Assembly: GCA_963704165.1 (NCBI GenBank)
Contig: CAVPHD010000001.1
Coordinates: 500,607 to 564,606, forward strand
Direction of reading: 5' to 3'
Length of the DNA: 64,000 nucleotides
From: an uncultured delta proteobacterium
GTDB lineage: Bacteria > Myxococcota_A > UBA9160 > SZUA-336
This document shows positions 1 to 58,753 of the stretch, piece by piece. Both the position numbers and the translations under genes were made by a program. The notes under the pieces are model-generated. The model ran no database searches and was not told the origin of the DNA. It was given only the letters and a program-made list of their open reading frames with translations. Each line of letters opens with the position of its first letter. The stretch's first letter is position 1.

Positions 1-1290
1 ATCGCCTCGGCGACGCACTCGAAGAGCGGCTCGACCTGACCGACCTCGAGACACGAGAACGCGACACGAATGTCGGTCCGGCCCATCGAGATCACGCCAA
101 CGCCGTACTTCTCGAGCAAGTGGAGGCGCAGCTTCTCGGCGTCGACGCCCTTCACGCGAATGCACATGAAGTAACCCGCGTTGAACGGGTAGACGTCCCA
201 GAGCGGCCGGTACTTGTCTCGGTATACGACCTCGCGCACGCGCGTGGCACGCGCGCGCAGGATCTCGAGCTTCTCGTGGCGCTCTGCGTCGATGGTGCTC
301 GAGCGCAGTGCCGACAAGACGATGCTCTGCGAGAGCGCCGCAGTGTTCGAGATCGACGCGCGGATCGCGCCCATCAGCTTGCGTTCGAGCGCGCCGAGCA
401 AGACCGTGGCGTTTCCGACGGGTGGTGGTGCGATCGTCAGGAATCCACAGCGCAGGCCCCAGACGAAGAGCTCCTTCGTCGCACCGTCGAGCTTGATCGT
501 CAGGACGTTCTCGTGAAGGTTCGAAAGCCAGCCAAACGGCGACTCCCGGATCGCGTCGTCGTCGAAGAGCAGGCCGAAGTAGGCGTCGTCGCAGACCACG
601 ACCAGCTTCTTGCCCGCGCGCGCCGCGTCGAGCACCGCATCGCGCATCTCTCCGACCTCGGCGGCGGTCGGCATGTAGCCCGTCGGGTTGTTCGGGAAGT
701 TCAAGACGAGCAGCTGCTTCGCCGGTCCGGCCAGCAGCGCGGCGCGCATGGCGGGGACGTTGAATCGCTCGCCGTCGTAGGTTGCAAACGTCTCGATCGA
801 CGCCGCCCAGGCGCGTCTCGAAGTTCAGCGCGTAGTTGTCCCAGAGCATGTCCGGAATCAGCACGCGGTCGCCCGGATCGACGAAGAGATCGCCGACCAG
901 CGAGAGACCATGCGTGATCGCGTGCGTCACGATCGGCAGACCGAAGCTGCGCTCGCGCAGCGTCGGGTTCTCGGCCAGGAGCTTCTTGCGCCACGCTTCT
1001 CGCAGGTCCGCGCGGCCCTGCGCGGGCGCGTAGCGCAGGGCATCGGCGGGAGAGATGTCCTTCAGGTGCGCGATCACCGACGCCAGCACCATCGGGCCGC
1101 CACCCTCGGTCGCCTCGCCGATCGTCGCGTTGAAGCGATTCGCCTTCTCTTTCGCCTCGGCCGACTGCGAAAGGATGCCCTTCGGAAAGTACAGCTCGCG
1201 ACCGCGCTGCGAGAGCAGTTCGTAGGTCGCACGGCTCTCGGCGCGGATCTTCTGGTTCAGCTCTTCTGCGATCGGGTGCACGCGCCGCAC
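1..1290 (-). pseudogene. PLP-dependent aminotransferase (class I/II fold). The 3' end lies beyond the window start. One +1 frame break near 795-800
   Basis: Absent from the ORF track because there is no stop inside the window. My reverse translation from GTG ~1290 reads VRRVHPIAEELNQKIRAESRATYELLSQRGRELYFPKGILSQSAEAKEKANRFNATIGEA...PDMLWDNYALNFETRLGGV. One base out of frame it continues IETFATYDGERFNVPAMRAAL...LVLNFPNNPTGYMPT...VVVCDDAYFGLLF...KLDGATKELFVWGLRCGF. The NPTG and K-x5-G-x-R-x-G motifs are aminotransferase hallmarks. Confidence 0.75.
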
Positions 1291-1313
1291 GTTAGCAGGT
1301 CGGGAAGTTCATT

Positions 1314-1775
1314 TTAAGAGATGCGCTCGAGGATGCGCGCGCGTTCGGCGAAACCGTGCCGTCCCCAGTACGCGAGAGCCTCGGTGTTGCTGCTCTCGAC
1401 GCGGACCGAAATTCTCGTGACTCCGCGGGAAGCGAAGAACGCGTCGCTCTCGGCGACGAGCCGTGCAGCCACGCCCCGCTCGCGGTGTCCTGGCTCGACG
1501 TAGAGCTCGTGGATCCACCCGGGAGCCGATTCCGGGTTCGGACCGACGCCGCGCTCGACCTCGGCGAACAGGAACCCCACCAATCGAGCCTCGCGCTCGG
1601 CGACGATCAGTCGGCAGCTTGGACTCGAAGCGGCGCGACGGATCTCACCTGCGATCATCGCAGCGATTCCGGGCATCGTCGGATAGCCCGGTGACAGGGC
1701 GCGGTGGTGATCGACCAGCCGGAGCCAGAGAGCGAGCACCCGCTCACGGTCACCGGGAACCGCGTCGCGCAGCAC
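1314..1775 (-). CDS. GNAT-family N-acetyltransferase (153 aa)
   Basis: Only the last 153 aa of track ORF 1314..2696 look like protein: VLRDAVPGDRERVLALW...LVGFLFAEVE...IHELYVEPGHRERGVAARLV...ALAYWGRHGF. An in-frame GTG lies at 1775. The upstream 300 aa are Arg/Gly-rich noise that overlaps the next gene. Confidence 0.8.
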   Translation of the reverse strand: MLRDAVPGDRERVLALWLRLVDHHRALSPGYPTMPGIAAMIAGEIRRAASSPSCRLIVAEREARLVGFLFAEVERGVGPNPESAPGWIHELYVEPGHRERGVAARLVAESDAFFASRGVTRISVRVESSNTEALAYWGRHGFAERARILERIS

Positions 1776-1795
1776 GAGCCTTGCGGCCGGCTGGT

Positions 1796-2455
1796 CTATT
1801 TCAGCACCCGGCGCTCCTTCGCACGAATCATGCGCAGGCTGCCCGCTTTGTCTCCCTCGCTCCAGGTTCCGCGCAACTCGTCCGGGGACGGTCGCTCCTC
1901 GATTTCGAAAACCGACGCCTCCTCCATGCCGCCCAACAGCGTGTCGCCGCCCGAGAGCGAATCGACGACGCTGACCCGCACGCGACCCGGTGACCACGTG
2001 ATCTCCCAGTTTCGCGCGAAGCTGACCGTTCCTCCGGCGCTGGATCCCTCTGGCGCGAGCGACTTCATGCCGGTCGCGATGCTTCCCTCGAGCTGCTTCG
2101 AGCGCATCGCGCGCGTCGAGACATCGACGTGCTTCATGAGCTCGGCGAGTACCAGACCCTCCGGCTGCCAGGGGCGGTGTCCGCGCATGTCTGCACGCCG
2201 GACCTCCTCGGTTCCCTCGTCGAAGAGCACGTACGGGTACTCGTCGACCTCGAGCTTGGTGTCCTGCTGGCGGATCGACCACGCGAAGTCCTTGAACTTC
2301 GTGATCGACTTGTCCTCGGACTTCGAATCCTTGTAGTGGAGCAGCAGGTACCATTCGCCGCTCAGGTCGAGATCCGAGAGGTCCTCGGCGAGCGCGAAGC
2401 GCGGTCCGGCAAGGAGCGCGCAAGCCATGAGCACGACGAGTCCAAATGAATGCAT
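1796..2455 (-). CDS. secreted hypothetical protein
   Basis: Track ORF 1796..2521, using the internal Met at 2455. It has a signal peptide, MHSFGLVVLMACALLAGPRFALA, followed by a mixed-charge globular sequence (EWYLLLHYKDSKSEDKSITKFKDFAWSIRQQD...). Confidence 0.6.
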   Translation of the reverse strand: MHSFGLVVLMACALLAGPRFALAEDLSDLDLSGEWYLLLHYKDSKSEDKSITKFKDFAWSIRQQDTKLEVDEYPYVLFDEGTEEVRRADMRGHRPWQPEGLVLAELMKHVDVSTRAMRSKQLEGSIATGMKSLAPEGSSAGGTVSFARNWEITWSPGRVRVSVVDSLSGGDTLLGGMEEASVFEIEERPSPDELRGTWSEGDKAGSLRMIRAKERRVLK

Positions 2456-2583
2456 AGGCAGCCAGTATAGCCACGTACGAGTTGTGGAATCCCGCCCCCT
2501 GAGGCGGGGGAGTGCCACCACGCTTGGTGTAGACTCGCACGCGATGGCGCGCGTCGGCGCAGTGCGCGCCCGAAGGCGGGGTT

Positions 2584-4536
2584 GTGGCTGCGATCTGGAT
2601 TGTATCTGAAGAATCAGCGCTCTCTACGACGCTGGCGCACCACGTCGATTCACTGGGAGGAGTCTGGCTCGGCGTGCCGGAACCTGCGGGCTTCAAGAGC
2701 GCTCCGCCGCCGGATCTACTGATCCTGTGCGGTGTCGCCGAGAGGTCGGACCGTCATGACGCGCTCGAGCGGCTCCTCGCGTTCGTGCGTCAGATTCCGC
2801 AGCGGCGCCGCGCCTCGGCGCCCGTGCTCTATCTGGCTCCGGACGGAGAGCCGGACGGCGGTCTCCACCTCGAGCGGCTCTTCGACGACCGCTGCTTCTC
2901 ACTTCTGCGGTTCCCCTTCGATCCCGACGAACTGACCGCTCGTGCCCGCGACTTGCTGCGCTCGAGCGAGCGGCCCGAGAGCCTGCGCGAGCGCGCGCGC
3001 AAGCTCTGGGTGACGCACGAGGTCGAACGGCTCTACGCGGGGCTCGACCTGCCCGAGCTGCGCCAGGCCGTCGATCCGCGCAACGCGCATCGCCCCGTGC
3101 TCCTGATCGGCGAACCCGGAACACGCCGCGCGCTGCTCGCGCGCTACGTGCACAATCTGGCAGAGCCGACGCGCGACGCGTTCGTGTCGATCGCGCTGCG
3201 CTCGATGGCGATCGGTGAGCTCGAGAGCGTGATCATGACGCGAACCACGAACCGGCGCGCGACGGCCTACCTCGATGGACTCGATGACGCCGCTCCGGCG
3301 CTACAGGACGAGCTGGCACATCTACTGGGAGCGAGCGGAGCCCTGGCGCTCGAACCGCTGCGCTGGATTGCCGCGGCTACCCGTGGAGGCGGCTTCGCCC
3401 GTCGCGCTTCGCGATCTCGGCTGGCTGCGCGTCGAGCTTCCTCCGCTCCGCGCACGCGCGCGACAAGGCCGCGCTGATCGACGCGGCCTTTCGCGCGTCA
3501 TCCGAGCGCCAGGGACGCGAACTCACGCTCGAGCCAGAGGCTCGGGAGCTCTTGGTCGAATACGGCTGGCCGGGAAATCTGCGCGAGCTCGATCGTGTTT
3601 CCGATGCGACCTGTGCGGCGGCATCGGGCACGAAGATCGGCGCGGCGGATCTGCAGATCTCGACTCACTCCCCATTTCACCCTCCGCCCTCGACATCGCC
3701 CGTGCCTGAGCCGCCGGCTTCGAGCGATGAGGAGCTGATGCTCGAGACCGTCGCCGAGCGCGACCTCGGGCGAAGACGAGCTCGATCCGGCTGAGCTGCT
3801 CGAGCTCGATGAGCTCGAACCCCTACGCGACACGGAGCCCGAACCCACGTCACCGCCCGAGCCTCGGGCCGCGGAGCCGTCGGACGTGCCGCTCGGCCTG
3901 TCGCCGCGTCAGCTCGTGATCCCGCTCGCTCAGTCCATCCGCGCGCCTCTGCGGGCATTTCGCACCTACGCGAACCTCGTCGAGCAACGGCCGGACGACG
4001 AGCACGTCCGGCGCGAGCTGCGGACCTTGGTCGAGCAGGATCTCGGCAGCCTCGAGGACACGCTGCAGCGTGTCGAGCGGTTCTCCCGGCTCGGCCCACC
4101 CGTGCTGCGGCCATTCGATCTCGCCGCAGCCCTCGGTGCCGAGCTCGACGCGCGTCAGAGCCAGGCGCGCGCGAAGTCCCTGGTCGTGCTCCGCGAGCTC
4201 GACTCGAGTGCGCCCCCGCTCGTCGCGGACGAGAGCCAACTCCGCCTCGCGATCCGCTCGCTGCTCGACCTCGCCCTCCGACTCGTGCCGGAGGGCGGCG
4301 ACCTGTATCTCGGCAGCGCTTGGCGGCCGAAGGATGAGGGGCTCGGCGCGGGTCATCGCATTCTGCTGCGCTTCCACAGCCCGGAGGACGTGCTGACCGG
4401 ACCTTCGGGTGAGACGGATGGCGACTATCTCGAGGTCGTGATCGCGCGCGACCTGTTCGCGCGTGCGGGAGGGAGCTTCGCGATCGACGCGAGCGGCGCG
4501 CAGGACAACGTGATTCTGGTCGAGTTGCCGGGCTGA
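2584..4536 (+). pseudogene. degenerate receiver / sigma-54-type AAA+ / histidine-kinase-like signalling protein, with three +1 frame breaks (~3385-3400, ~3447-3463, ~3766-3771)
   Basis: Track ORFs 2584..3477, 3275..3709 (middle part), 3552..3794 and 3886..4536 join into one protein: ...HRPVLLIGEPGTRRALLARYV...LRWIAAATR / PVALRDLGWLRVELPPLRAR / RDKAALIDAAF...LVEYGWPGNLRELDRV...ERDLG / EDELDPAELLELDE...LVIPLAQSIRAPLRAF...ADESQLRLAIRSLLDLALRL. GWPGNLREL is the enhancer-binding-protein signature. The catalytic residues look lost: Walker A is GTRR, there is no GAFTGA, and there is no H-box His. Confidence 0.65.
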
Positions 4537-4560
4537 CGCGCTCCGCTAGCGTCGCTGGGC

Positions 4561-11889: not shown

Positions 11890-11968
11890 CGAGATCGTCC
11901 TTACGGAATGGGCTGCAACCCGGGGGGTGAAGATCGTAGCGCGAAGTGCCTCGGAACGCGGCGCGCGG

Positions 11969-14716
11969 TCAGCCGAGCAACGCGAGCGTGGTCTCGCGGC
12001 GGCGTCCCGTCCGTTCCTCGTCGGATTCGAGTTCACGCCGCTCGTCGGGCTCGATCGCGAAGACCCGCTCGCCCTTTTTCACGATGCTGCCGTCCCGACC
12101 CGCCATCAGGTTCCTCGTGACGGTGCCCGGGTACGGCGCTGCGACCTTGTTGAACATCTTCATGACCTCGATCACGAAGAGCGGCTGTCCGGCTTCGAAG
12201 TGCTGGCCTTCCTCGATCAACGGAGGCAGGTGCGGAGCCTCGCGCGAGTAGAACGTGCCGCCCATCGGCGTGACGATCTCGTCGAAGGCGGCGGGCGGAG
12301 GAGGCGCGAGAGCACGCGCGAGCTCGGATGCCCGCGATTCGTCGAGGAAACGCTCCGGAAACACGATCGTCAGGTCGTCATCGACGTGGATGTCGAGGAA
12401 GCCCGTGCGTGCACCCAGACGCGGGATCACGAGCAGAAGCTCGAGGCCCAGCTGAAAACCCCGGTGCGCCGCCACGCAGCGAGACCAGAGCGCGTCGTCT
12501 CCGCCGCAGAGCGCGGCGAGTGGCTCGCCGGCGAAGAGTTTCTCGAGCGCGCCCGCGTCCTTCGCGCCGGTCGCCGCTTCGACCGCGGCGTAGAAGGCGC
12601 GCGCGGAGTCGAGGACCGCCGCATCGTGCTGCCAGATCTGCTCGGCGGGCGGCTTGTCGGCGCGCGCTTCGAGATCGAGGAAGTGATGGAGGCGCTCGAG
12701 AAAATCGATCGGGTTGGCCTCGAACGACACCTTCGTACCATCGGTCTTCCAGAGCTCACCGTCGTAGCGGCCGAGGAATCCCCCGATCAGGTGCGCGTTC
12801 GCGAACAGCCGCGCGAGCGGACGGAGCAGCAGGGTCTCCTTCGCCTCGAGCGCCGCGCGCGCGGCGGCATCGGACGTGCGCCCGACGAGCTGCGAAAAGG
12901 CGAACTCGAAGTCGATGCTGCTCGCGGTCTGCTCCAGCGCCCCGACCGCGCCGAGATACGACGTCATGAAGCGCGTGTTCGGCTCGGCCATGACGCCGTG
13001 TCCGAGGAACCATTGGATCAGCCCGTAGTGGACCTCGCGGTTCGTCTGCAGATCGTCGCCCCGCAGCTCCATCCGCCGCAGGATCTCGGCCATGCGCTCG
13101 TAGTTCTCGAGTCGTGATTCCCCGTGTGTGAGAACCAGCGCGATGTTCGAGTCGTAGGCGCCGGCGACGTTGTAGTAGACGAACGAATTCGTGTCGGGAT
13201 TGCGGATTCCGATGCCCTGATCGAAGCGCACCTCGTCGGGAAGTGGCCCCGACCAGCTGCGGATCAGTCCGCCGGCGTGGGGCTGGAGCGCGCGATTGGT
13301 CGCGTTGACCCGCACTTCGACCGCGGAGAGATTCCGCGCCACGCGCTCCGGCTTCGGCACGCGCTTCCCATGCGCGGCGAGCAACGCCATCGCCTCGATC
13401 AGGCGCTCGACGTAGAAGTGCTCGCCTGGCTCGTCGGGGTTCGCGAAGCGCAGGCGATAGGCGAGCTCGGTCACGACGTGCTCGACCTGGATTCGCGTGT
13501 TCATCTCCATGAAGAAGAAGTCGAAGCCGTCGACGATGCACTCGAACGTGGACACGGAGTCGAGTCCGGTCGCCGAACCGAACCGTTCGCTCTCGGCTTC
13601 CATTCGCGCCAGATAGCCGCGGTCGCCGATCAAAACCTCACGCGTCGCTCCGCTCGCACACTCGATCTCGGCGTCGAGCAGCTCCACGGTGAGCGAGACT
13701 TCGATGAGCTTCTGCTCGTGCATCTGCACGGAGCAGTCCCGTCCGCCGAGCGAGATGCACCAGTCACCGTTGCCGATCAGCTGGATCTCGTTGTGGCGCG
13801 TGCGCTCGATGTTCAGCTCGACCAGGAAGTTCCGGTTCGAGCCTGGCTCGACGACCTTGGACTCGGCGCAGACGTCCATGACGGCGGCGGCGATCTCCTC
13901 GGGTTTCGAGACGACGCGCTGTCCCTTCCCGCCACCACCTCCGATGTACTTGAAGCGGATGCGATGCGTCGGATAGTCGCGCCAGATTCCGGCACAGACG
14001 CGCTCGGCTTCCCGCTGCAGATCCGCGATCCCGACGAGATCGACGCCCGCCGCGTAGCCCGCCTGCAGCAGCGCCTCCGCATTCAGCTCGAGCGAATCCT
14101 TGCCGCTCCAGGTGAACACGAGACCGGCATCCTTCGCCCGCTTCTCGAGGCCCTTCCGGTCCTTCGCGAGCTCGAGCAGCGCGCGCGTGCTGACGTCGTC
14201 CACGCCGGGAATCACGGCGTTGCCGAGTCCACGGGCGAGCTTCTTCGCCTCGTCCTTCGCGCCGGCGCGTCGGAGCACGTGCGACGACGGACCCATGAAG
14301 CCGATCCCGGCGCGCTCGATCGCCTCGACGAGGTCCGCGTCCTCCGCCATGAATCCATAGCCGGCGAAGACGTGCGTGTAGCCGTGCTCGAGCGCGATCG
14401 CGACGATCTCGCGGATCCGCGCCTGTTTCTGCTGCTGACCCGATCCCGTGTAGTCCTGCACGCGATGCACGTTCTGCGGGAAGCGGAACGAGCGCAGCTC
14501 CGGTGCGAGACAACGCGGGTAGACCACGGAGTCCTTCTCCGAGAGCAGCATTCCGTACTCGCGCACGCCGATCTCGTCGAAGACCTGGAAGGCCTCGAGC
14601 CTCACCGGGCCCCGGCAGACCACGAGCACCTTCAGCGCATCGAGAGCGAACGAGCGCAGCCACGGGCTCTCGCATTCGCCGAAGCGCCGCGGCACGAGGT
14701 CGCGATCGAGCATCAC
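11969..14716 (-). CDS. 915-aa biotin carboxylase-BCCP fusion (acyl-CoA carboxylase alpha-like, atypical)
   Basis: Track ORF 11969..14716. It has ATP-grasp motifs ([41 protein letters not shown]), a long middle region, and a C-terminal biotinyl domain ([23 protein letters not shown]). The ATG overlaps the stop of the carboxyltransferase gene. Confidence 0.8.
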
Positions 14717-16386: not shown

Positions 16387-16495
16387 GCCGGGGGCCCCTC
16401 CAAAGGCCAGAGCTTCGGCCCTCGGCCCGACCGCGTCGCTCGCCGGTGGGGGGCGCAGGATACCAGATCGCCCCATCGACCCGTCCGGGTCGCTC

Positions 16496-17663: not shown

Positions 17664-18182
17664 CCTTCCTTCTCCCCGGGCAGGCTCGAGCGGCTGACGC
17701 CGTCCTCGGTCTCGTGGGTGACGACATCGAGGAGCAGCAGCACGACGCCGATCACGATCGCAGAATCGGCCACGTTGAAATCCGGAAAGACGAAGAGCCC
17801 GAAGATCGAACTGCAGGAAGTCCACGACCTCGCCGCCGCGCAGGATCCGGTCGATGAGATTGCCGACCGCGCCCGAGACGATCAGGCCGAGCGACACCGC
17901 CGAGAGTCGGTCGCCGGGCTCGATGCGCCGGAAGAACGATCCGATCATCACCAGCGCCACGAGCGCGAGCACGACGAAGACGATCACGGGCAGACCCTGC
18001 GCGAGACCGAGTGCCCCGCCGGGATTGCGCGCGTGGGTCACGCGGAAGAATCCATCGAGCATCTCGATCGGCACCCAGTAGCTGCCGCGCTCGATGTACG
18101 CCGAAACCAGGCTCTTGGTGATCTGATCGAGCGGCACGATCACGGCGATGAGCGCCAGCAGGGTGCGAAGCTTCGGGGTCAT
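17660..18182 (-). pseudogene. lspA: lipoprotein signal peptidase II; one +1 frame break at ~17801-17808
   Basis: Track ORF 17172..18182 begins MTPKLRTLLALIAVIVPLDQITK...FRVTHARNPGGALG...GAVGNLIDRILRGGEVVDFLQF. The conserved end ...FGLFVFPDFNVADSAIVIGVVLLLL...EKEG* is one base out of frame, with its stop at 17660-17662. Confidence 0.8.
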
Positions 18183-22064: not shown

Positions 22065-22252
22065 TCCGCGCCTGCGTCATCACGCTCGCACTCGTTGCCG
22101 TCGCCGCGTGCGGCAGGTACGGCCCGCCGGTGCGCGAGTCCGGCGCGAGCCGGGCGGAGAAGGCCGCCGTGTCCTCGGCTCCCGCGGAAGCCGACACCGA
22201 GGCGTGTCCAGATCCGAACTCGCCCGCGCCGGGCACCCGGACGACCCCGTGA
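22061..22252 (+). CDS. small lipoprotein (LptM/YifL-like position upstream of dapF)
   Basis: MIRACVITLALVAVAACGRYGPP... has a lipobox (VAAC). The ATG overlaps the argH stop and its own stop overlaps the dapF GTG. A small lipoprotein gene directly 5' of dapF is a common arrangement. Confidence 0.6.
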   Translation: MIRACVITLALVAVAACGRYGPPVRESGASRAEKAAVSSAPAEADTEACPDPNSPAPGTRTTP

Positions 22253-26400: not shown

Positions 26401-28478
26401 GTGCACTCGAAGCCGCTCTTGCTTCGATCTCCAGTTTCGCGACGAAACGCCGACGCGAGATCGATGCCGACCGGTCGATCGACAGAGCCGAAGTGGCGAA
26501 CGAGCCTCGCCACGCTCACGGCCTACAGCCGGGCGCTCGACTACCACGCTTTGATCACGGTCACGGATCTGCGGGGACGGATCACACATGCAAACGATCT
26601 GGCGTGCCGGATCAGCGGGTACGAGCGGGCGGAGCTGATCGGGAACGACCATCGCATCTTGAACTCCGGCCGGCACCCGAAGCTCTTCTGGTCGGAGATG
26701 TGGGCGACGATCGTCCGAGGCGAGACGTGGCGGGGTGAGGTCTGCAACAAGGCGAAGGACGGCTCGCTCTACTGGGTGGACACGACGATCGGTCCCGTGC
26801 GCGGTGCCGACGAGAGCATCGCCGGATACATCTCCGTCCGAATCCTGGTCACCGACCGCAAGCGCGCCGAGAAGGCTCTGGCCGAGAGCGAGGCCAAGTT
26901 CCGAGCCCTCGCCGAGGGCACCGGCGTGATCCTCTGGGAGTACGACCTGTCCGCACACGCGCTCAGCTACGTCTCCCCCCAGGCCGCTTCGCTGGGGTAT
27001 CCGCTCGATCGCCACTTCGAGCCGGGCTTCTGGGAGTCGGTCGTCCACCCGGACGACCGCGAGCAGATGATGGCGTCCCGTCGAGCGCTGATTCAGGAGC
27101 AGACCGATCTTCGAATGCAGTACCGGATCGTCTGGGCCGACGGCTCCGTCCACTGGTTGGACGACGCCGTGTCGGTGACCGTCGTGGGGGGCAAGGTGAC
27201 TACACTTCGGGGTGTCATCATGGACATCACCGAATCGCGACAGCAGAGAGAGGAGCTCGCGCGAGCGCGCGACGCGGCAGAGGCGGCCAGCCGCTCCAAG
27301 ACCGAGTTCCTCGCGAACATGAGCCACGAGATCCGCACGCCGATGACGGCGATCCTCGGCTATGCGGATCTGCTCCGTGACGAAGGTGAAGTGGGCCGGT
27401 CGTCGGCACTGCGGCTCGAGATCATCGAAACGATCAGCCGCGCCGGCCAGCACCTGATGAGCATCCTCGACGACATCCTCGATCTGTCCAAGATCGAGGC
27501 GAACAAGGTCGCGACTGAGAATATCGAGACGCCGCTCGCGCAACTCCTCGTGGACGTGAAGAGCCTCGTGCAGCAACGGGCGGTCGAGAAGGGCGTGACG
27601 GTGAACCTCCGCCTCGAGCCCGCACTTCCGGAGCGAGTTCTCTCCGACCCGACCCGACTGCGGCAGATCTTGATCAATCTCTCTGGCAACGCGGTGAAAT
27701 TCACCGAGAGCGGGTCCGTGACGATCGCCGCCCGCGCCGAAGACCGCGACGGCCAATCCCGCCTGATCATCGACGTCGAGGACACGGGTCGCGGTCTGAC
27801 ACCTCCCGAAGCGGAGCGGCTCTTCAACGCATTCGCGCAGGCCGACGGGACGATGACGCGAAAGTTCGGAGGCACGGGTCTGGGTCTGACGATCAGCCGC
27901 CGACTTGCGCGGCTGATGGGCGGCGATCTCTCGCTCGCCTGGAGCGAGCCGGGGCGAGGTTCGTGTTTCCGCCTCGATCTACCGCTGGAGCCCGTCCCCG
28001 GTGCGGGAGATCCGAGACGTCTCGAAGGCGAGCGCAGGCCACCGACGTCCGCAGCCAACCCGACGCCGATCTCGCTCTCGGGCCGAATCCTGGTCGCCGA
28101 GGACGGCGCGGACAACCGACGTCTGCTCGCGTTCCACCTCGAGAAAGCCGGAGCGCGCGTGGACCTCGCCGAGGATGGCGTGCAAGCGCTCGAGATGCTG
28201 ATCGAAGCCGAAATCGCCGGCGCGCCGTACGACCTGCTGCTCAGTGACATGCAGATGCCCGAGATGGACGGATTCACTTTGGTCCGCACGCTGCGCGGCC
28301 GGGGATCGACGCTGGCCGTCGTCGCCGTGACGGCCCACGCACTCTCCGAAGACCGGGAAGAGTGCATGTCCGCCGGCTGCGACGACTACACCGCCAAGCC
28401 CATCGACCGAGCGGCTCTGCTCGAGAAATGCGCCAGGTGGATCGGCAGGAAGAGCGCGAAAGCGCTCGTTCCGCCGTC

Positions 28479-28494
<16 letters not shown>
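26401..28494 (+). CDS. PAS/PAC hybrid sensor histidine kinase with a C-terminal receiver (alternative ATG start at 26464)
   Basis: Two PAS/PAC modules (…[27 protein letters not shown]…; …WEYDLSAH…[15 protein letters not shown]), an H-box ([23 protein letters not shown]), N/G boxes ([28 protein letters not shown]), and a receiver ([13 protein letters not shown]...[13 protein letters not shown]...TAKP). Confidence 0.88.
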
Positions 28495-29908
<1,414 letters not shown>

Positions 29909-29934: not shown

Positions 29935-30298
<364 letters not shown>

Positions 30299-33939: not shown

Positions 33940-34882
33940 TCAGGCCGCGCGCGCGAGTCTCGCCTGCAGCGCCTTCCAGCACTCGATCATCTTCTCGACG
34001 ACCTGGAGGTCGTCCTCGTTGTCGACGTCGATCGCGGCGCCACCGAGCTCCGTCGTGATCGTGATGAAGCGCGTACGCAGGAGCGCGCTCGCCGCGCGTT
34101 CGATCGCCCTGATCGAGACCCATGCGCGCACCCTGTCCGACGCGCGCGTGTAGCCGCGCCGATGCAGAAGTCCCGCGACGTGGACCGCGAAGTAGCAGCC
34201 GAGCACCCAGAGATTCCGCCACTCCTTGCGCAGCACGCGCCAGGCGAGCGCGACCTGACTCGCGATCTCCTTCTGGTAGCGGTTTTCGTACATGTCCTCG
34301 ACGTAGCTGCGATTCCCCATGCGCAGCGCGCGGACGAAGTGCAGGTTGTTCTGCCGGAAGCGTCCCTCGCGCAGGTTGAAGTACGCCATCTCGACGCCGG
34401 GCGAGCCGTCGCGCGGCGAGAAGGGAACGAGCGAGGACTCGGGTGTGAGACCGACGACGTAGTCGCCGCCGCACGCCTCCGCCCGCAGAGCGAAGGTCGA
34501 GAGCTCTTCCGGCATCACCAACGGGATGTCGGCCGGCACGACGAGCACGGCGTGAGCGTCGTCCGGCTTCGCACCCGGCCGGAGCGTACGCAGAAAAGTG
34601 TGCCAGACGTTCGCGTACAGCGTCTCGCGCTGGGGCACGACGTGGACCGGACACCCGCGCGATGCCGCGAGCGCGAGGCAGCCGAACTCCGAGATCACCT
34701 GCTCGAGCCGCAACGGGTTTCCGACCACGAAGACCTCGGAGACCTCGGGCGTGTGCAGCAGCGATTCGAGCACGTGCACGATCATGGGTTTGCCGCGCGA
34801 TCTCGACGAACGCCTTGCTCTGGCCCCGGATCGCGCGGCTCGCACCGCGGTCGCCGGCCATGAGAATCGCCTGGATGCGCAT
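33940..34882 (-). pseudogene. MobA-like NTP-transferase family protein; one +1 frame break at ~34794-34800
   Basis: The N-terminus MRIQAILMAGDRGASRAIRGQSKAFVEI (in track ORF 33887..35059, Met at 34882) continues one base out of frame as RGKPMIVHVLESLLHTPEVSEVFVVGN... (track ORF 33940..34845). Confidence 0.7.
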
Positions 34883-36545: not shown

Positions 36546-38660
36546 GTGGCGGGGCCGGTAGTCGGTATCGATCTCGGAACCCTGAACAGCTGCGTCGCCG
36601 TCGTGAAGGACGGCAAGGCGGTCGTTCTGGCCGATGAGGCGCGCACGACGACGCCCTCCTGTGTGGCGATCCAGCAGGGGCGGGAGCTCGTCGGGGCGGC
36701 CGCGAAGCGCCATGCCGTGACCTCCCCGCAGAGCACCGTGATCGCGGTCAAACGCCTGATCGGTCACGCGTTCGACTCCGACGAGGTGCGCGCCGCGGCC
36801 GCGCGCGTTCCGTACACGCTGTCGGCGAGCCCGCTCGGCGGCGTGCTGCTCGAGGTCGAAGGCGCCAAGCTCACGCCCGTCGAGGTCTCGACGAAGATCC
36901 TCAAGCGCGTTCGCGAGGTCGCGGAGAAGGCGCTCGGCGTGCCGGTGACACGGGCGGTGATCTCCGTTCCCGCTCACTTCAACGACGTGCAGCGCAAGGC
37001 GACCAAGCTCGCTGCCGAGTACGCCGGCCTCGAGGTGCTGCGGCTGATCAACGAGCCGACGGCCGCGGCGTTCGCCTACGGGTACAAGAAGCACAAGGAC
37101 TTCACGCTCGCCGTCTACGATCTCGGCGGCGGCACGTTCGACGTCACCGTCATGTGTGCCCGCGGCGATACCTTCGAGGTGGTCGCGACCGACGGCGATT
37201 CGTACCTCGGCGGTGAGGACTTCGACTACGCGATCGCGGAGTGGCTCGAGAGCGAGTTCGCCGCGGAGCACGGTTTCGATCTTTCGACCCAGCAAGCCGC
37301 ACGGCTTCGCCTGAAGGAGGCCGCCGAGAAGGCCAAGATCGAGCTCGCCTCGGCCGAAGTCGCGCAGATCGACCTGCCGTTCCTCGCGGTGCTTCCCGAC
37401 GGAACCCAGGCGAACTTCTCGAGGAGCTTCTCGCGCCAGAAGCTCGTCGAGGTATGCCAGCCGTTGGTCGCGCGGACGCTCGAACTCTGCGAGCGCTGTC
37501 TGTCGACCGCGCGCATCTCTCGTGGCGAGGTCGGCGAGGTCCTGCTCGTCGGTGGACAGAGCCGCATGCTCGCGGTTCGCGACGCGGTCAAGGACTTCTT
37601 CGGCAAAGAGCCGCGGCGCGACATCAATCCCGACGAGGTCGTCGCGATCGGCGCCGCTCTCTACGCCTACTCCCTGTCCGCCGATCAGCTGCAGAAAGAG
37701 GCGGTCGATGCCGCCGAAGACGCCTACGGTGTCGCGGTACGTCGAACCGAAGTCGCGCGCAAGATCGTGAAGGAAGTCGAGAGCCTGCGTGCCAGGCCTC
37801 TCGACGACGCGGGTCTGGCCTCGCGCCTGCAATCGCTGCTTCAGGCGACCCAGGCGGACGGCACCATCCCGCCCGACTTCCGCGATACCACCGACCCCGG
37901 CTCGATCGGCCCGATCACCTTCGGTACGAGCGAGCCAGCCGAAGACGACTCACCACGGATGCTCGACGTCGCGCACGAGCCTCTTCAGCTCGAAGGTCTG
38001 TTGGGGAACTCGGCGAGTGACGATGATCTGCCGACGGCGATCCGGGGTCTGAAGAGCGAGCTGATGCAGCTCGACTACAAGGCCGCCGAGCTGATCGAGC
38101 AGCTCGCCAACGACGTGTGCGACGCCGAGGCGTCGGAGCTGCTCGAAATCGCGAAGGATCGGCTGAACGAGAGCCTGACCGATGCCAGGGGCGCATCGGA
38201 CGAGGTCGTCGAGCAGATCAAGACCGCCGTCGAACACAAGCAGGCGCGGCGCGTGAATCTGCGCGACGTCACGTCGTTGCCACTCGGCATCGCGAGCGCG
38301 GGTGGGGTCTTCACCGTGCTGATCGATCAGAACGTCGTCGTTCCCACCGAGCTCGCGCGCGTGTTCACGACCAACCAGGACGGTCAGGCCGAGGTCGAGA
38401 TCCGCGTCTTCCAGGGCCGTGCGCGAAACGTCGCCGACAACCAGTTGCTCGGCTCCTTCATCCTCGAGGGCATCGCCCCCGCGCGGCGCATGGAGCCGAA
38501 GATCGACGTCGCATTCCGAATCGACGAGAACGGAATCCTGGCGGTGCGCGCGTGCAACGCGGAGTCGGGCGCAGAGCAGAGCATCCGGATCGAGGACCCG
38601 CTCGGCCTGCAGCAGGTCGAGCCGGCCACACCCGCGCAGGAACCCGAAATCGAAACCTAG
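36546..38660 (+). CDS. Hsp70-family protein (DnaK-like) with a ~190-aa insertion between the nucleotide-binding domain (NBD) and the substrate-binding beta domain (SBD-beta), and no helical lid
   Basis: [15 protein letters not shown]...[17 protein letters not shown]...[14 protein letters not shown]...[12 protein letters not shown]...[13 protein letters not shown]...[12 protein letters not shown]. An acidic helical insert follows at ~37675-38262. Then [28 protein letters not shown]...[20 protein letters not shown]...[11 protein letters not shown]. The protein ends ~40 aa later. Confidence 0.85.
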
Positions 38661-38687
38661 CTTGCGCGCCCCCGCGCGTATGGCACG

Positions 38688-39134
38688 ATGGCGACGATGA
38701 CGCGTGGGCTTGCCATCGCTCTGATGCTCGCGTGCGCCGGCGCTCAGCCAGCGCTCAGCTCCTCGCTCATCACCAGCGCACTGGCCTTTGGAATCCATTC
38801 GCACGGCCACGAACACTCGATCGCGCTGCACTCCGACGGCACCCACATCGACATCGTGCTCTCGCACGGCGATGGCGGGAGTCACGATCACGCGAAGATG
38901 CCCGCGGATCACGATCATCCGGCATCCCTGCTCGAGGGTGCCCACGTCGTTCACGTCACGGCTGTCGAAGCCGCGAACTCGACCTCGCGCCGCGTGGTGA
39001 TTCACCAGCCGCTGTCGCTTCCGATCGCGCTCGTGCGTCCGCCCGACGTCGCACGCGCATCGCCGCCGTGCGCGTCGTTCGCGTCGCATGCACGCGGACT
39101 GGATCAGCTGAGAACCATCGTCCTCCGTCTCTGA
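38688..39134 (+). CDS. His-rich putative periplasmic metal-binding protein
   Basis: It has a signal-like N-terminus (MTRGLAIALMLACAGAQPALS), then FGIHSHGHEHSIALHSDGTHIDIVLSHGDGGSHDHAKMPADHDHPASLLEGAHVVHV. It lies immediately 5' of czcCBA. Confidence 0.6.
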   Translation: MATMTRGLAIALMLACAGAQPALSSSLITSALAFGIHSHGHEHSIALHSDGTHIDIVLSHGDGGSHDHAKMPADHDHPASLLEGAHVVHVTAVEAANSTSRRVVIHQPLSLPIALVRPPDVARASPPCASFASHARGLDQLRTIVLRL

Positions 39135-39210
39135 GAGGTCGCGTCGCACCCGAGTCACCGCTCCGCGGTGAGATCTCGATCGATGCCTTCCACTGGAGGA
39201 CGAATGTCTC

Positions 39211-40563
39211 ATGACCTGCACTGCATGCTTGCGGTGCGCGGTGCTGTTCGCGGCTGGGCTCTGCCTTCCGCTCAGCGGCCACGCACAATCGCCTGCACCG
39301 TATCCCGTCGGACGCGAGCTTGCCGTCTTCGAGGCGCCCGCGTCCGCGCAGACCTCTTCTCCCGCCGAGCCGCCTGAGCCCTCCGGCGCGCTCCGGCTCG
39401 AGGACGCGCTCGCGGCGGCGCTGCTGCGCAATCCGCTGCTCGCAGCCGACGCGTACGAGGTCCGCGCGCGCGAAGCGGCTCTGCTCCAGGCCGGTGCGCG
39501 CCCCAACCCGACGCTCTCGCTCGAGGTCGAGGACTTCGCCGGCTCCGGCGAGTTCAGCGCCCTCGACGGCGCGCAGACCACGCTCCTGCTCGGACAGCTG
39601 ATCGAGCTCGGTGGGAAGCGAGCCGCGCGGATCGGTCTCGCCTCGGCGGACCGGGACCTGGCGGCGTGGGACTACGAGGTCCGGCGAATCGGTGTGCTGG
39701 TGGACTGCGCCAACGCGTTCGTCGACGTGCTGGCCGCACAGGAGCGCGTCCACCTGGCCAACGACGAGGTCGAACTCGCGACCGCGATGCAACGCGTGGC
39801 GTCTTCGCGCCTGCGGGCCGGGATCGCCTCACCCGCGGAGCAGATCCGAGCCGACATCGAGGCCGATGTTGCCGAGGTCGAGCGCGAGCACACCGAGCAC
39901 GGGCTCGCGACCGCTCGACAGATCCTCGCCGCGGTCTGGGCCGGTGAGGAGCCCCGCTTCGAGCGCGCGCTCGGCGATCTCGAGCGGCTCCCCGGAGTTC
40001 CGTCTGGCGAGGAGCTGGCCCGGCGGCTCGATGCAAGTCCGAGCGTTGCGCGTTGGCGTGCCGAGCTCGCGCGGCGAGATGCGCTGCGCGCGCGTGCGCA
40101 GAGCGAGCGAACTCCGAACGTGACGCTACAGGCCGGTCCGCGCCGCCTCTCGGGCCCCGGAGACACCGCGCTCGTCGTCGGCATCGCATTGCCCCTGCCA
40201 CTCTGGGATCGCAATCGCTTTGGGATCGCGGAGGCCGAGCACCGCGTCGCGAAGCTCGGAGCCGAAGCGCGCGCCGCGCGAATCCGCGCCGTCACCGATC
40301 TCGCGACCGCGCGCGTCGGCCTCGAAGCGTCGACCGAGGAAGCCCACCTGCTGCGCACGCGCGTGCTGCCCGGCGCCGCGCGCGCCGTCGACGTGCTGCG
40401 GCGCGGCTACGAGCGCGGCCGTTTCGCCCAGTTCGAAGTCCTCGAAGCCCAGCGTGCGCGCCTCGCGGTGCGGGAGCAGTACCTGCGCGCGCTCGTCGAG
40501 GCACATCACGACGCGCAACTGATCGAACGCCTGACCGGCGTGCCGTTGGAGGTACGACCTTGA
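39211..40563 (+). CDS. czcC: TolC-family outer-membrane factor of a heavy-metal RND efflux system
   Basis: Signal peptide, then LRLEDALAAALLRNPLLAA...ARPNPTLSLEVEDF...LELGGKR...PLPLWDRNR. This is a two-repeat OEP pattern. Confidence 0.8.
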   Translation: MTCTACLRCAVLFAAGLCLPLSGHAQSPAPYPVGRELAVFEAPASAQTSSPAEPPEPSGALRLEDALAAALLRNPLLAADAYEVRAREAALLQAGARPNPTLSLEVEDFAGSGEFSALDGAQTTLLLGQLIELGGKRAARIGLASADRDLAAWDYEVRRIGVLVDCANAFVDVLAAQERVHLANDEVELATAMQRVASSRLRAGIASPAEQIRADIEADVAEVEREHTEHGLATARQILAAVWAGEEPRFERALGDLERLPGVPSGEELARRLDASPSVARWRAELARRDALRARAQSERTPNVTLQAGPRRLSGPGDTALVVGIALPLPLWDRNRFGIAEAEHRVAKLGAEARAARIRAVTDLATARVGLEASTEEAHLLRTRVLPGAARAVDVLRRGYERGRFAQFEVLEAQRARLAVREQYLRALVEAHHDAQLIERLTGVPLEVRP

Positions 40564-41786
40564 CCCACCGATTCCTGAGCGTTGCCCTGTGCCTGTCGCT
40601 CTTCGGCACGATCGCATGCTCGCCCGACGAGCACGTGGACGACGGAGCGGCGTCGTACGAGCGCGGACCGCATGGCGGACGCTGGTTCCCGGACGGCGAG
40701 TTCGCACTCGAGCTCACGATCTTCGAACGCGGCGTTCCACCCGAGTTCCGCGCGTACGTGTACCGGAACGGGGAACCGATCGACCCGGCGAGCGTCGAGC
40801 TCGACGTGACGCTTCGCAGGCTCGGTGAACGCGTCGATCGGATCGGTTTCGCCGCGCAGGGTGAATACCTGCTCGGCGACCGGACCGTCTACGAGCCCCA
40901 TTCCTTCGACGCCGAGATCGTGGCGCGGACGAACGGTCGCGAGCACCGGTTCGCGTTCTCGTCGTACGAGAACCGCGTCTCGCTCGCGCCCGATCAGCTC
41001 GAGGCCTCCGGGATCTCGATCGAGGTCGCTTCGCCCGCCACGATTCACGAACACGTCCGCCTGAACGGACGGATCGCGCCGAACGCGGACGCACTCGCAC
41101 ACGTGATGCCGCGCTTTCCGGGAATCGTGCGAGCGGTGCACAAGCGGCTCGGAGATCCGATCGCGCGGGGCGATCTGCTCGCGGTGATCGAGAGCAACGA
41201 GAGCCTGCACCCGTTCGAGGTGCGCGCGCAGCTCGCGGGCACCGTGATCGCAAAGGACGTCTCGCCCGGCGAGTTCGTATCGAACGATCGGGAGCTCTTC
41301 GAGATCGCGGATCTCAGCAGCGTCTGGGTCGATCTCGACGTGTACCGGCGCGACTTCGGGCGGTTGCGTGTCGGCCAATCGGTTCGGATCGACGCGGGAG
41401 ACGGCTCGGAGCCGGTCGAGAGCGCGCTCAGCTACCTGTCGCCGATCGGCTCGATCAACACGCAGACCCTGCTCGCCCGCGCCGTGCTCCCGAACCCCGA
41501 TCTCTCCTGGCGGCCTGGGTTGTTCGTGACCGCCGAGGTCGAAGTCGGAGCGAACTCCGTACCGGTCGCCGTGTCCGTCGATGCGCTCCAGCGCCTGCGC
41601 GACTGGGACGTCGTGTTCATCACGGTGGATGGCGTCTTCGAGGCGCAGCCGGTCGAGCTCGGCCGCCGCGACGCGACCCACGTCGAGATCGTGTCGGGCC
41701 TCGAAGCCGGACAGAGCTATGTCGCCGCGGGCAGCTTCGTCCTCAAGTCCGACGTCGGAAAATCCGGCGCGACGCACGACCACTAG
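40560..41786 (+). CDS. czcB: RND efflux membrane-fusion (periplasmic adaptor) protein
   Basis: TTG 40560 within track ORF 40053..41786, overlapping the czcC TGA. It has a lipoprotein-like start (LSVALCLSLFGTIAC) and HlyD-type beta-barrel/lipoyl segments (...RFPGIVRAVHKRLGDPIARGDLLAVIES...AGTVIAKDVSPGEFV...VWVDLDVY...). Confidence 0.8.
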   Translation: MTHRFLSVALCLSLFGTIACSPDEHVDDGAASYERGPHGGRWFPDGEFALELTIFERGVPPEFRAYVYRNGEPIDPASVELDVTLRRLGERVDRIGFAAQGEYLLGDRTVYEPHSFDAEIVARTNGREHRFAFSSYENRVSLAPDQLEASGISIEVASPATIHEHVRLNGRIAPNADALAHVMPRFPGIVRAVHKRLGDPIARGDLLAVIESNESLHPFEVRAQLAGTVIAKDVSPGEFVSNDRELFEIADLSSVWVDLDVYRRDFGRLRVGQSVRIDAGDGSEPVESALSYLSPIGSINTQTLLARAVLPNPDLSWRPGLFVTAEVEVGANSVPVAVSVDALQRLRDWDVVFITVDGVFEAQPVELGRRDATHVEIVSGLEAGQSYVAAGSFVLKSDVGKSGATHDH

Positions 41787-46549
<4,763 letters not shown>

Positions 46550-52652: not shown

Positions 52653-55431
<2,779 letters not shown>

Positions 55432-55435
<4 letters not shown>

Positions 55436-56372
55436 GACGGCAGCCTCGAGAGCTCGCGGCGCAGCAGCACGAGGAAGAGCGGCCCGCCGACGAGCGCGGT
55501 GAGGGCGCCGACCGGAAGCTCGATCGGCGCGAGCACGACGCGCGCGAGCGTGTCCGCGATCACCAGGAAGGCCGCGCCGGCGAGCGCCGAGGCGGGAAGC
55601 AGCGTGCGGTGGTCGGAGCCGATCGCCAGACGGAGCAGGTGCGGCACGATCAGGCCGACGAATCCGATCAGACCCGACACCGCGACCGACGCGCCGATCA
55701 TCAGCGCGCTCGCGGCGAGGACGTGCCGGCGCGTGCGCGGCACGTCGACACCGAGGTGGGCCGCCGTCTCGTCGCCCTGCGCGAGCAGGTTCAGCGCGTA
55801 GGCGTGGCGCAGCGCGATTCCGAGTCCGATCGCGAAGAGCGCCGCCACGCCCGCGAGAAGCGCCGGCTCGACCAGGCGGATCGAGCCGATCAGCCAGAGG
55901 AAGACGCTCGCGACCCGCGACAGATCCGCGGCGCTGGTCACGAACACGATCAGCGACGATGCGAACGCGTTGAACACGACGCCGGTGAGCAGCAGGCTGT
56001 GCGCGGGAGCGCGACCGCCCGAAGCCGGCGATCGCGTAGAGCAAGAGGCTCGCGCCGAGCGCCCCGGCGAACGCGACCAGCGGCACGGCCGAACCGCCGA
56101 GCCAGAACCCGGCGCCGAGCGCCAGCGCCGCGACGCCGCCGAGCGCCGCGCCACCCGAGATTCCGAGCACGTACGGATCGGCGAGCGGATTCTGCAGGAG
56201 CGCCTGGAGCAGCGCTCCCGCCGTCGCCAGCCCCGCGCCGACGATCGCGGCGAGCAGCGCGCGCGGCAGGCGGATCTCGAAGCACGATCGCGGCGGTCGG
56301 ATTCTGCGCCGACCCGATCCACAGGCTTGCGCCGACGCAGGCGAGCACGAGCAGCCCGAGCCATCCGAGCAC
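55432..56372 (-). pseudogene. FecCD/BtuC-family ABC permease; two +1 frame breaks (~56279-84, ~56014-22)
   Basis: (V)[20 protein letters not shown]...AAIV / [48 protein letters not shown]...YAIAGFG / [18 protein letters not shown]...[16 protein letters not shown]...[20 protein letters not shown] (track ORFs 55950..56372, 54593..56533 and 55432..56526). Confidence 0.82.
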
Positions 56373-56384
56373 CGGACGCGAAGC

Positions 56385-57254: not shown

Positions 57255-57296
57255 GACGCTGTTCTAGCACTTCACTCGCGCGCGCGTCCCGAAAGC

Positions 57297-57331
57297 GGGG
57301 GCGCGGACGACCCTGCGGCCGCCGCGCCCCC
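57297..57331 (-). terminator. GC-rich hairpin after comEA (possible intrinsic terminator with a weak U-tract)
   Basis: gggggcgcgg (57297-57306) and ccgcgccccc (57322-57331) form a 10-bp perfect stem with a 15-nt loop. On the minus strand it is followed by GCTTTC. It starts 8 nt after the comEA stop. Confidence 0.4.
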
Positions 57332-57338
57332 GGACCGT

Positions 57339-57683
57339 TCAGTTGCCCGACTGCGCGGTCGTCTTGCCGTCGAGCGTCACGTGCGGCCGCATGCGCTCGA
57401 GCGCCTTGTCACCGATGCCCTTCACTTCCGAAAGGTCGTCGACGCGCTTGAACGCACCGTGCTGCTTGCGGTACTCGAGGATGGCCTGCGCCTTCGCAGG
57501 GCCGACACCGGGCAGGAGCGAGAGCTCCTCCGCGGTGGCCGAGTTCACGTTGACGACACCGGCAATTGCGGCGCCTCCCGCGTGCCCGGCCGGCTCGTTC
57601 CCGGCGGCGATGGCCACGTTGCACAGAAATGCCACCAGCGCGATCGCGCTCGCGGCCCGGACGATCCTTGCTCGGATCTTCAT
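57339..57683 (-). CDS. comEA: ComEA-family helix-hairpin-helix DNA-binding protein
   Basis: Met66 of track ORF 57339..57878. Signal/anchor MKIRARIVRAASAIALVAFLCNVAIA, then VNVNSATAEELSLLPGVGPAKAQAILEYRKQHGAFKRVDDLSEVKGIGDKALERM. Confidence 0.85.
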   Translation of the reverse strand: MKIRARIVRAASAIALVAFLCNVAIAAGNEPAGHAGGAAIAGVVNVNSATAEELSLLPGVGPAKAQAILEYRKQHGAFKRVDDLSEVKGIGDKALERMRPHVTLDGKTTAQSGN

Positions 57684-57741
57684 ACCCTGCCTTTCCTTCG
57701 TTGGGGTGAGGAAAGCGGGTGAGGCGGGGAAACCTGTTGGA

Positions 57742-58753
57742 CTAGCTCTGGCGGCCGACGACGAAGTCCGCGAGCGCGAGCATCGCGTGCTTCGCCTCGC
57801 AATCCACGAACGGTTCGATCTGCGAGCGCGCCTGGCTGCCGAGCTGCTCCGCACGGGCGAGCGCGCTCTCGACGCCACGGTGCCGGGCCACGCACTCGGC
57901 CACGCGTTGCACGCTCTCGCGGTCCGGGCTGCGCCCGGCGGCGCTCTGCAGCGCGAACTCCTTCAAGAGGGCCGAGATCGCATCGCGCTCCCCTGTGCTG
58001 CAGCGCTTCAGGGTCGCGATCAACGGCAGCGTGAGCTTTCCCTCCGCCACGTCGGTGAGTGGCGCCTTGCCGAGGTCCCGCTCCGTGCCGGCGTAGTCGA
58101 GCGCGTCATCGACGAGCTGGAAGGCGAGGCCGAGGAGCCAGCCGTACTCGCGAACGGCGCGCCGCTCGGAACGAGTCACGCCACCGAGGATCGCACCCGC
58201 CTCGGCCGCGGCGGCGAGCAGGCTCGACGTCTTTCCGCCGATCACTTCTAGGTAGGTCGGTCTCGTTCATCTCGGGATCGAAGCTGCGCGTCAGCTGAAG
58301 GACCTCGCCCTCGGCCATCGCGCGGATGCTCTCGGCGAAGGCCGCGAGAATGTCGGGGTCCCCGTCCTCGACGAGCGTCTGACAGGTTCGCGCGTAGAGG
58401 AAGTCGCCGACGAGGATCGCGAGCTTGCTGCCGAAGTGCGCGTTCACGCTCGGACGCCCGCGCCGGGTCTCCGCGCCGTCGACGACGTCGTCGTGCAGGA
58501 GCGACGCGCTGTGCAGGTACTCGGCCGCGGCCGCGATCTGGATCGCGCGCGGACCGCGATAGCCGCAGAGTCGAGCGGCGAGCAGAACCATGACGGGCCG
58601 GACGCGTTTGCCGCCGCTTCCGAACGTGTGCTCGCCGATCGTCGGAATCACCGGCGCGACGGAGCGCATGCCGGCACGCATGACGCGCTCGACCTGATCG
58701 AGGTCGTCGCGCAGGAAGCTGATGATGCGGTCGAGATCGGGGGCGGCTGTCAA
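57742..58753 (-). pseudogene. ispB: all-trans polyprenyl-diphosphate synthase (IspB-like); one +1 frame break at ~58254-58258
   Basis: Track ORF 58106..58753 (…GGKRVRPVMVLLAARL…LHSASLLHDDVVDGAETRRGRPS…EGEVLQL…NETD) continues as track ORF 57742..58245 (YLEVIGGKTSSLL…GLAFQLVDDALDY…GKAPLTDVAEGKLTLP). Both DDxxD boxes are present. Confidence 0.85.

Follow-up and report, generated by a model that had tools for sequence, protein, structure and literature searches.

Frame breaks in the window

The window, a stretch of 64,000 nucleotides from the assembled genome of an uncultured delta proteobacterium, holds twelve conserved genes whose reading frames are interrupted by single extra bases. A sequence-only reading of this DNA had named these genes and listed 24 frame breaks in them; its gene names were backed by Pfam. 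The genes are listed below with the positions of the extra bases relative to a genome of the same genus (G007), followed by the gaps that fall between genes.

1..1304, minus strand: class I/II aminotransferase, 3' end beyond the window; extra base at 797; PF00155 on the G007 orthologue
2581..4536, plus strand: AAA+-lid / histidine-kinase-like regulator; extra bases at 3404, 3461 and 3770; PF25601
17660..18182, minus strand: lspA (signal peptidase II); extra base at 17802; PF01252
18210..20587, minus strand: mrcA (class A penicillin-binding protein); extra bases at 18713, 19039, 19378, 19422 and 19571
28479..29908, minus strand: glnA (type I glutamine synthetase); extra bases at 28847, 29046, 29172, 29568 and 29594
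29938..30276, minus strand: glnB (PII protein); extra base at 30081
33940..34882, minus strand: MobA-like NTP-transferase; extra base at 34797, from a three-way alignment with G010 and G007
41796..44940, plus strand: czcA (RND heavy-metal efflux pump), read in frame 2 and then frame 3; extra base at 43424
53308..54605, minus strand: eno (enolase); extra bases at 53678 and 53891
54610..55435, minus strand: ABC transporter ATPase; extra base at 55200; PF00005
55441..56402, minus strand: FecCD-type ABC permease; extra bases at 56027, 56278 and 56379; PF01032
57745..58789, minus strand: ispB (polyprenyl diphosphate synthase), 96.3% identical to G007; extra base at 58259; PF00348
1280, 34968, 57725, 11904-11974, 16397-16484 and 22148-22191: intergenic gaps between the window and G007 whose length is not a multiple of three

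We compared the window by blastn with reconstructed syntenic G007 DNA; about 84% of the window aligned, at 80 to 93% DNA identity. Inside window coding sequence, this comparison returned 25 one-base insertions and no one-base deletions, in agreement with the earlier claim that every break is displaced by +1 and that -1 events are absent. The sequence-only reading had proposed alignment to orthologues as a means of pinning down each inserted base, and the G007 alignment did so for every listed hop: all 24 breaks correspond to isolated one-base insertions, each 0 to 16 nt from the hop position. The list thus held for its positions but was incomplete, as a 25th insertion at 56379, around codon 4 of the FecCD permease, had been overlooked. 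The remaining gaps relative to G007 that are not multiples of three were either cancelled at most 15 nt away or intergenic. The insertions in glnA and glnB were also visible against two further genomes of the genus (G003 and G005), and the insertion at 34797 against G010. When the G007 orthologues were traced by tblastn, the frame stepped in the same direction in every affected gene: eno passed through frames -1, -2 and -3, and the regulator through frames 3, 2 and 3, its middle piece being short. The broken frames are truly present in the deposited sequence.

The insertions were strongly clustered, as had been described from the sequence. Their median spacing was 368 nt against an expected 1622 nt, and 14 gaps were shorter than 500 nt against an expected 4.6; neither value was equalled in any of 20,000 random placements. 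The stretches previously given as free of breaks (4.6-17.6, 20.6-28.5, 35-43.4 and 44.9-53.3 kb) were likewise free of insertions in the G007 alignment. GC content was considered as the cause of the patches and rejected: insertion density rose only about 2.5-fold with GC, and the glnA patch lies in a relatively low-GC stretch.

Condition of the affected genes and context of the inserted bases

Skipping the extra bases alone restored full-length frames in 11 of 11 genes tested, with no internal stop codon in any of them and with 78 to 96% identity to intact G007 proteins. The aminotransferase and the regulator read through without stops at 89.9% and 78.3% identity to G007, respectively, as did eno at 94.4%. 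In glnA, the stop-free read-through was 95.1% identical to the intact 474-aa G007 protein. Removal of one base from glnB had been said to give a 112-aa PII protein; we reproduced this result, and the product was 95.5% identical to its G007 counterpart. The mrcA read-through was also free of stops, at 792 aa with the start codon taken as Met. Among 5.8 billion proteins searched, the top public match to hop-corrected mrcA was 86% identical, with PF14814, PF00912 and PF00905. For the NTP-transferase, PF12804 was found on the downstream fragment.

Selection on the broken genes did not differ from that on their surroundings: dN/dS ranged from 0.065 to 0.215 (median, 0.152), and the median for 34 intact neighbours was 0.169. 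In glnA and glnB, private substitutions numbered 29 in the window versus 36 in G007. The affected genes carry no lesion besides the extra bases. These are absent from G003, G005 and G010 where these genomes were checked, and from G007 at all 25 sites, and the genes are intact in these relatives. Judged by these alignments, the insertions are private to the present assembly, private being meant within the genus, since a same-species copy is absent from the protein collection. A search for intact second copies, also proposed earlier, was carried out by tblastn with G007 orthologues against the 3.87-Mb assembly (84% complete); for eno, lspA, ispB and type I glnA, it returned only the broken copies, a negative that is less than absolute at this level of completeness. 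Taken together, the affected genes are most likely intact in the organism itself.

The sequence context of the inserted bases was analysed at 57 insertion sites. The inserted bases (22 C, 20 G, 9 T and 6 A) approximate the composition of the genome; the base differs from both neighbours at 39 sites and repeats a neighbour at the other 18. By codon phase, the insertions divide 14/13/13 at unambiguous sites and 24/19/15 overall. We detected no shared motif, rare codon, stop codon, four-base word or CGGN word at the sites, where the most frequent 3-mers and 4-mers were close to background, and none of the 57 belongs to a homopolymer of four bases or longer. The earlier statement that the breaks lack a common slippery, stop-codon or homopolymer context extends to this larger set. 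An excess of G over C among inserted bases on the plus strand, 14:5 in the window, shrank to 24:18 with more sites and was not significant. The homopolymer signature typical of Nanopore, 454 and Ion Torrent data was not seen at the 57 sites, which argues against a homopolymer sub-type of error and not against consensus error in general. As a profile, these differences consist of nearly nothing but insertions, fall outside homopolymers and come without an excess of substitutions, unlike the homopolymer errors usually attributed to Nanopore.

Frame switches across the assembly

The assembly comprises 3.87 Mb in 12 contigs and is 84% complete. We scanned all of it with a reference-free Viterbi procedure based on codon usage, in which a valid call requires both segments to be at least 45 nt long. 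The scan recovered 20 of the 24 window sites then listed; it fused the close pair at 29568 and 29594 into one call and missed 56379. Applied to 54 kb of G007 as a control, it returned no valid call. Across the assembly, it called 817 insertion-type switches versus 176 others, distributed over all 12 contigs. These switches were patchy (index of dispersion, 3.66): 61% of 5-kb bins were empty and others held up to 15, with patches of about 1 to 8 kb reaching a density of about one insertion per 180 bp. Comparison with G007 in one such region (contig C6, 31001-47000) showed, within 8 kb, 3 isolated one-base deletions; isolated one-base insertions numbered 34 by clean calls and about 45 once less clean calls were admitted. 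With all isolated calls counted, the ratio of insertions to deletions in this patch was about 15:1. A few two-base insertions were also present in the same patches.

Copies of repeats inside the assembly differ from one another by many one-base indels, for example with 21 gap openings in 1.85 kb, and in the two worst repeat pairs, three of the four copies are located at contig ends. The sole 23S rRNA gene (contig C3, 29370-32349) is 2980 nt long, as in G007 and G005; it sits in a clean stretch and has no bearing either way. An insertion in a non-coding RNA gene, which would have given independent proof, was therefore not seen. A motif search for an internal positive control found no convincing RF2 (prfB) site among the scan calls, because the first open reading frame of prfB is too short for the detector.

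Origin of the extra bases

Sequence comparison points to a technical origin: the 25 breaks are very probably spurious single bases in a metagenome consensus built from long reads or scaffolded with them. Such bases would have survived wherever polishing was inadequate or coverage too thin to outvote them. We infer an insertion-prone platform, and an origin of the extra bases outside the cell, at the sequencing or the consensus step. Patchy insertion errors in a long-read or low-coverage consensus had already been proposed as the most economical explanation. That proposal is supported by insertions that are private, random in context and the only lesions present, by unrelaxed selection, by the single-copy essential genes among those hit and by insertion-dominated patches on all 12 contigs. 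In PacBio CLR-like raw reads, insertion errors are reported at about 8%, deletions at 3% and substitutions at 2% (proovframe preprint, 10.1101/2021.08.23.457338). Frameshifting indels are known to persist in long-read assemblies, and PacBio raw errors are reported to be insertion-dominated (10.1101/2021.08.23.457338; PMC9262707; PMC8812927); polishing with Medaka lowers indels (PMC12313526).

If the insertions were instead real, the population would have been sampled shortly after an outburst of +1 insertion mutations, or while pseudogenes were forming on a massive scale, as in bacteria newly restricted to a host. The extra bases do stand in the deposited sequence, and the low apparent completeness (84%) would also suit gene loss. 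However, about 1000 switches are predicted across the genome, and they hit eno, lspA, ispB, glnA and mrcA, for which spare copies are lacking; such a cell would not be viable. The genes tested carry no nonsense substitutions or other lesions, dN/dS is unchanged in the broken genes, and substitutions are not in excess in glnA and glnB. Deletions prevail in bacterial mutation and in known decaying genomes, whereas here the ratio of insertions to deletions is 25:0 for the window and about 15:1 for the C6 patch; no known mutational process matches patches with insertions as dense as one per 180 bp and no substitutions alongside them. We regard real insertions of this kind as very unlikely. The earlier judgement that genuine pseudogenisation is implausible unless intact paralogues exist stands, given normal dN/dS and the lack of a second eno, lspA, ispB or type I glnA in the assembly. 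Real insertions might also be decoded, whether the ribosome shifts by +1, a four-base codon is read or the RNA is corrected. Such recoding would accord with the uniform +1 direction of the breaks and with downstream frames that retain full coding signal and purifying selection, but it is at odds with the lack of any motif, rare codon, stop codon or four-base word common to the sites and with their even spread over codon phases. In the orthologues of four same-genus relatives, the extra base is absent and the gene is read in a single frame, so the frameshift is not conserved. The same patches also include a small number of one-base deletions and of two-base insertions, and their kilobase scale, irrespective of gene identity, fits a trait of the assembly better than one of translation. 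Recoding is accordingly given almost no credence. Were the insertions truly in the DNA, an unknown RNA- or ribosome-level correction that finds motif-less sites would be needed; that this Myxococcota lineage tolerates about 1000 context-free +1 insertions in its cellular DNA, eno, glnA, lspA and ispB among the genes hit, is scarcely believable.

A different artefact was suggested by two sites, 29172 and 34797, at which the window reads CG and the relatives have C or G. Where co-assembled strains differ, a consensus that keeps both alleles side by side would gain an extra base, and such doubling would yield insertions alone, in patches where the strains diverge. Doubled variants should, however, cluster at third codon positions, and the observed phases are uniform (14/13/13 and 24/19/15); moreover, 18 of the 57 inserted bases merely repeat a neighbour. 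The uniform codon phase rules out doubled strain alleles as a general cause, and we hold a strain mixture to be exceedingly improbable as the source of the breaks. If true, it would still be an assembly artefact, with a changed mechanism and the same verdict.

The frame breaks are thus almost certainly a data-quality problem and not biology. About 1000 split reading frames in a species-representative genome mean inflated gene counts, false pseudogenes and truncated database proteins, and they depress the completeness estimate, which stands at 84% for an assembly of 12 contigs. Scans of this genome for recoding, gene decay or small open reading frames could be misled. As a warning for annotation, the insertion-dominated, non-homopolymer and patchy error signature is a recognisable fingerprint.

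Decaying genomes such as those of Mycobacterium leprae and Sodalis carry deletions, nonsense mutations and larger lesions under relaxed dN/dS, and they retain essential genes. The present assembly resembles these pseudogene-rich genomes in that many conserved genes are frameshifted; in contrast to them, it shows single insertions alone and normal dN/dS, and essential single-copy genes are hit. Programmed +1 ribosomal frameshifting, as in bacterial prfB (RF2), uses a conserved shift motif at a site conserved in orthologues. The likeness to prfB lies in the +1 frame change needed for a full-length protein, whereas the 25 sites described here share neither motif nor conservation, number up to five per gene and fall in random codon phase. 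The counterpart favoured here is the residual indel error of long-read and hybrid assemblies, in which single-base indels private to one assembly split conserved genes into adjacent open reading frames and lower the apparent completeness of a contiguous metagenome-assembled genome, and in which genes are conceptually repaired by homology-guided frame hopping. Kilobase-scale patchiness of the kind seen here goes beyond what the papers on such residual indels explain (10.1101/2021.08.23.457338; PMC9262707; PMC8812927; PMC12313526). Unlike the homopolymer-length errors of the cited Nanopore papers, the extra bases in this assembly are almost purely insertions outside homopolymers, and in this respect they come nearer to PacBio CLR raw error, which the proovframe preprint quotes as insertion-dominated (10.1101/2021.08.23.457338).

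Single-base insertions in conserved genes of the window

The window belongs to a 3.87-Mb assembly of 12 contigs (68% G+C, estimated completeness 84%), and its protein matches are to uncultured Myxococcota MAGs. No same-species sequence was found in the protein collection searched; among 11 same-genus genomes, the closest was G007, with DNA identity of 80-93% across the window. Syntenic G007 loci were taken as three forward frames in a protein alignment, with stops as X, and their DNA was rebuilt from the overlapping translations. One such rebuilt locus (L009) had a single mismatch to the original in 20,000 positions, at a terminal base. Alignment of the window to the rebuilt DNA by blastn gave seven collinear blocks covering ∼84% of the window.

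A sequence-only reading had listed 24 +1 frame hops in 12 conserved genes, whose names were confirmed by Pfam. Relative to G007, the window carries an isolated one-base insertion within 0-16 nt of every hop. A 25th insertion, beyond that list, was detected at 56379, near codon 4 (approximately) of the FecCD permease, where frame correction brings back the conserved N terminus. Because the remaining gaps of lengths other than multiples of three were cancelled within 15 nt or intergenic, the alignment yields 25 insertions and 0 deletions in coding sequence, in agreement with the earlier claim that -1 events are absent. The frames also step one way within each gene in tblastn searches with G007 proteins, as had been proposed. 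Clustering of the breaks held up (median spacing, 368 nt, versus 1622 nt expected; matched by 0 of 20,000 random placements), and the stretches named as break free were clean.

Comparison of glnA and glnB with three relatives (G003, G005, and G007) showed that six extra bases are private to the window; in G007, glnA (474-aa) and glnB are intact. The insertion at 34797 was likewise seen against both G010 and G007. G005 is highly contiguous and apparently incomplete (3 contigs, 74% complete) and may be affected by similar frameshift errors, but the glnA/glnB alignment was clean for this genome.

When only the extra bases were omitted, all 11 genes tested read through stop free and end to end against their G007 orthologues, at 78-96% identity. 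dN/dS in the G007 frame ranged from 0.065 to 0.215 for the broken genes (median, 0.152), and the median for 34 intact neighbors was 0.169. In glnA/glnB, the window carries 29 private substitutions and G007 carries 36. Together, these data indicate that the extra bases are the sole lesions, without any sign of relaxed constraint on the broken genes. No second copy of eno, lspA, ispB, or type-I glnA was found in the whole assembly.

Frame switches across the assembly

Codon usage was trained on 463 long ORFs and applied in a Viterbi scan whose seven states were the six reading frames and non-coding sequence, with a frame switch called where the same-strand frame changed at least 45 nt ahead of the old frame's stop codon. 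The scan recovered 20 of the 24 window sites then listed and missed 56379; the close pair at 29568 and 29594 was fused into one "+2" call. As a control, 54 kb of syntenic G007 DNA gave 0 valid calls. Across the whole assembly, 817 insertion-type and 176 other switches were called; each of the 12 contigs carried switches, at densities of 11-48 per 100 kb. The switches were clumped: in 5-kb bins, the index of dispersion was 3.66, with 61% of bins empty and some holding up to 15 switches, and patches spanned a median of 1.1 kb (maximum, 8 kb). Insertion-type switches became steadily denser as local GC increased: the lowest GC decile had 0.14 per kb and the highest had 0.35 per kb (∼2.5-fold), a trend to which detector sensitivity may contribute.

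The densest patch (C6:35000-43100) was aligned to G007 within C6:31001-47000. Over 8 kb, we counted 34 clean isolated one-base insertions, or ∼45 if less clean calls are included. Isolated one-base deletions numbered 3, and there were also a few insertions of two bases; the error process is thus insertion dominated rather than strictly insertion only.

For sequence context, sites of the window were pooled with those of a second patch (57 in all). Consistent with the earlier claim of no shared context, the most frequent 3-mers and 4-mers in the ±6 nt around the sites were near background frequencies, and 0 of 57 inserted bases lay in runs of four or more. On the coding strand, the inserted bases (C22, G20, T9, A6) were near genome composition, and 39 of 57 differed from both neighbors. 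Gap codon phase was uniform (14/13/13 at unambiguous sites, 24/19/15 overall). Positions 29172 and 34797 had suggested that, where strains vary at third positions, the consensus retains both alleles; this uniformity rejects that idea.

Near-identical repeat copies within the assembly also differed by many one-base indels.

Near-identical repeat pairs in the assembly
C1:1-1851 and C8:3003-4863, 21 gap openings and 43 mismatches in 1.85 kb
C10:1-886 and C11:238611-239501
C3:1508-2914 and C7:3841-5244

In the two worst pairs, 3 of 4 copies lie at contig ends, which suggests especially poor consensus there or overlaps that were never merged. In length, the single 23S rRNA gene matches its counterparts in relatives.

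Segments without a syntenic counterpart

Segments of the window lacking a syntenic counterpart in G007
26401-28494, + strand, hybrid sensor kinase ORF (697-aa, PAS-PAS-HisKA-HATPase-REC; segment 26380-28475), directly upstream of glnA
38635-44944, czc (RND heavy-metal efflux) block, inserted relative to G007
59417-60310, - strand, NYN-domain gene, in a lower-GC stretch (58866-62400)
61419-62378, - strand, intact IS1595-family transposase, in the same stretch

At the syntenic position in both G007 and G010, the flanking sequences run together without the sensor kinase gene, which appears to be a lineage-specific insertion beside nitrogen-assimilation genes. At the czc insertion point, G007 contig C16 is uninterrupted (3905 to 3949), and a czc copy with 80% identity lies on G007 contig C122, suggesting an efflux island that is mobile or relocated. 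The stretch at 58866-62400 has lower GC (61-63.5%) and is without a G007 counterpart; no frame breaks were seen within it.

Origin of the extra bases

The frame breaks are very probably a consensus artefact with no real biological feature behind them, as the sequence-only reading had favored in proposing insertion errors. This reading draws on about a thousand context-free, phase-blind extra bases, almost all insertions, unaccompanied by substitutions and gathered in kilobase patches on every contig; they fall in essential single-copy genes that nonetheless appear fully constrained, and they are missing from every relative. That the extra bases are real mutations is quite improbable. Uniform codon phase and near-background k-mers rule out any frame-aware process, and real insertions decoded by the organism are the least credible account. 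A variant of the artefact arising from strain mixture is highly improbable as well.

Residual frameshifting indels are documented in long-read assemblies (10.1101/2021.08.23.457338; PMC9262707, PMC8812927, PMC12313526). Insertions are reported to dominate raw PacBio CLR error, with approximate rates of 8% against 3% for deletions and 2% for substitutions (10.1101/2021.08.23.457338). The non-homopolymer errors of the window's assembly differ from the classic Nanopore profile.
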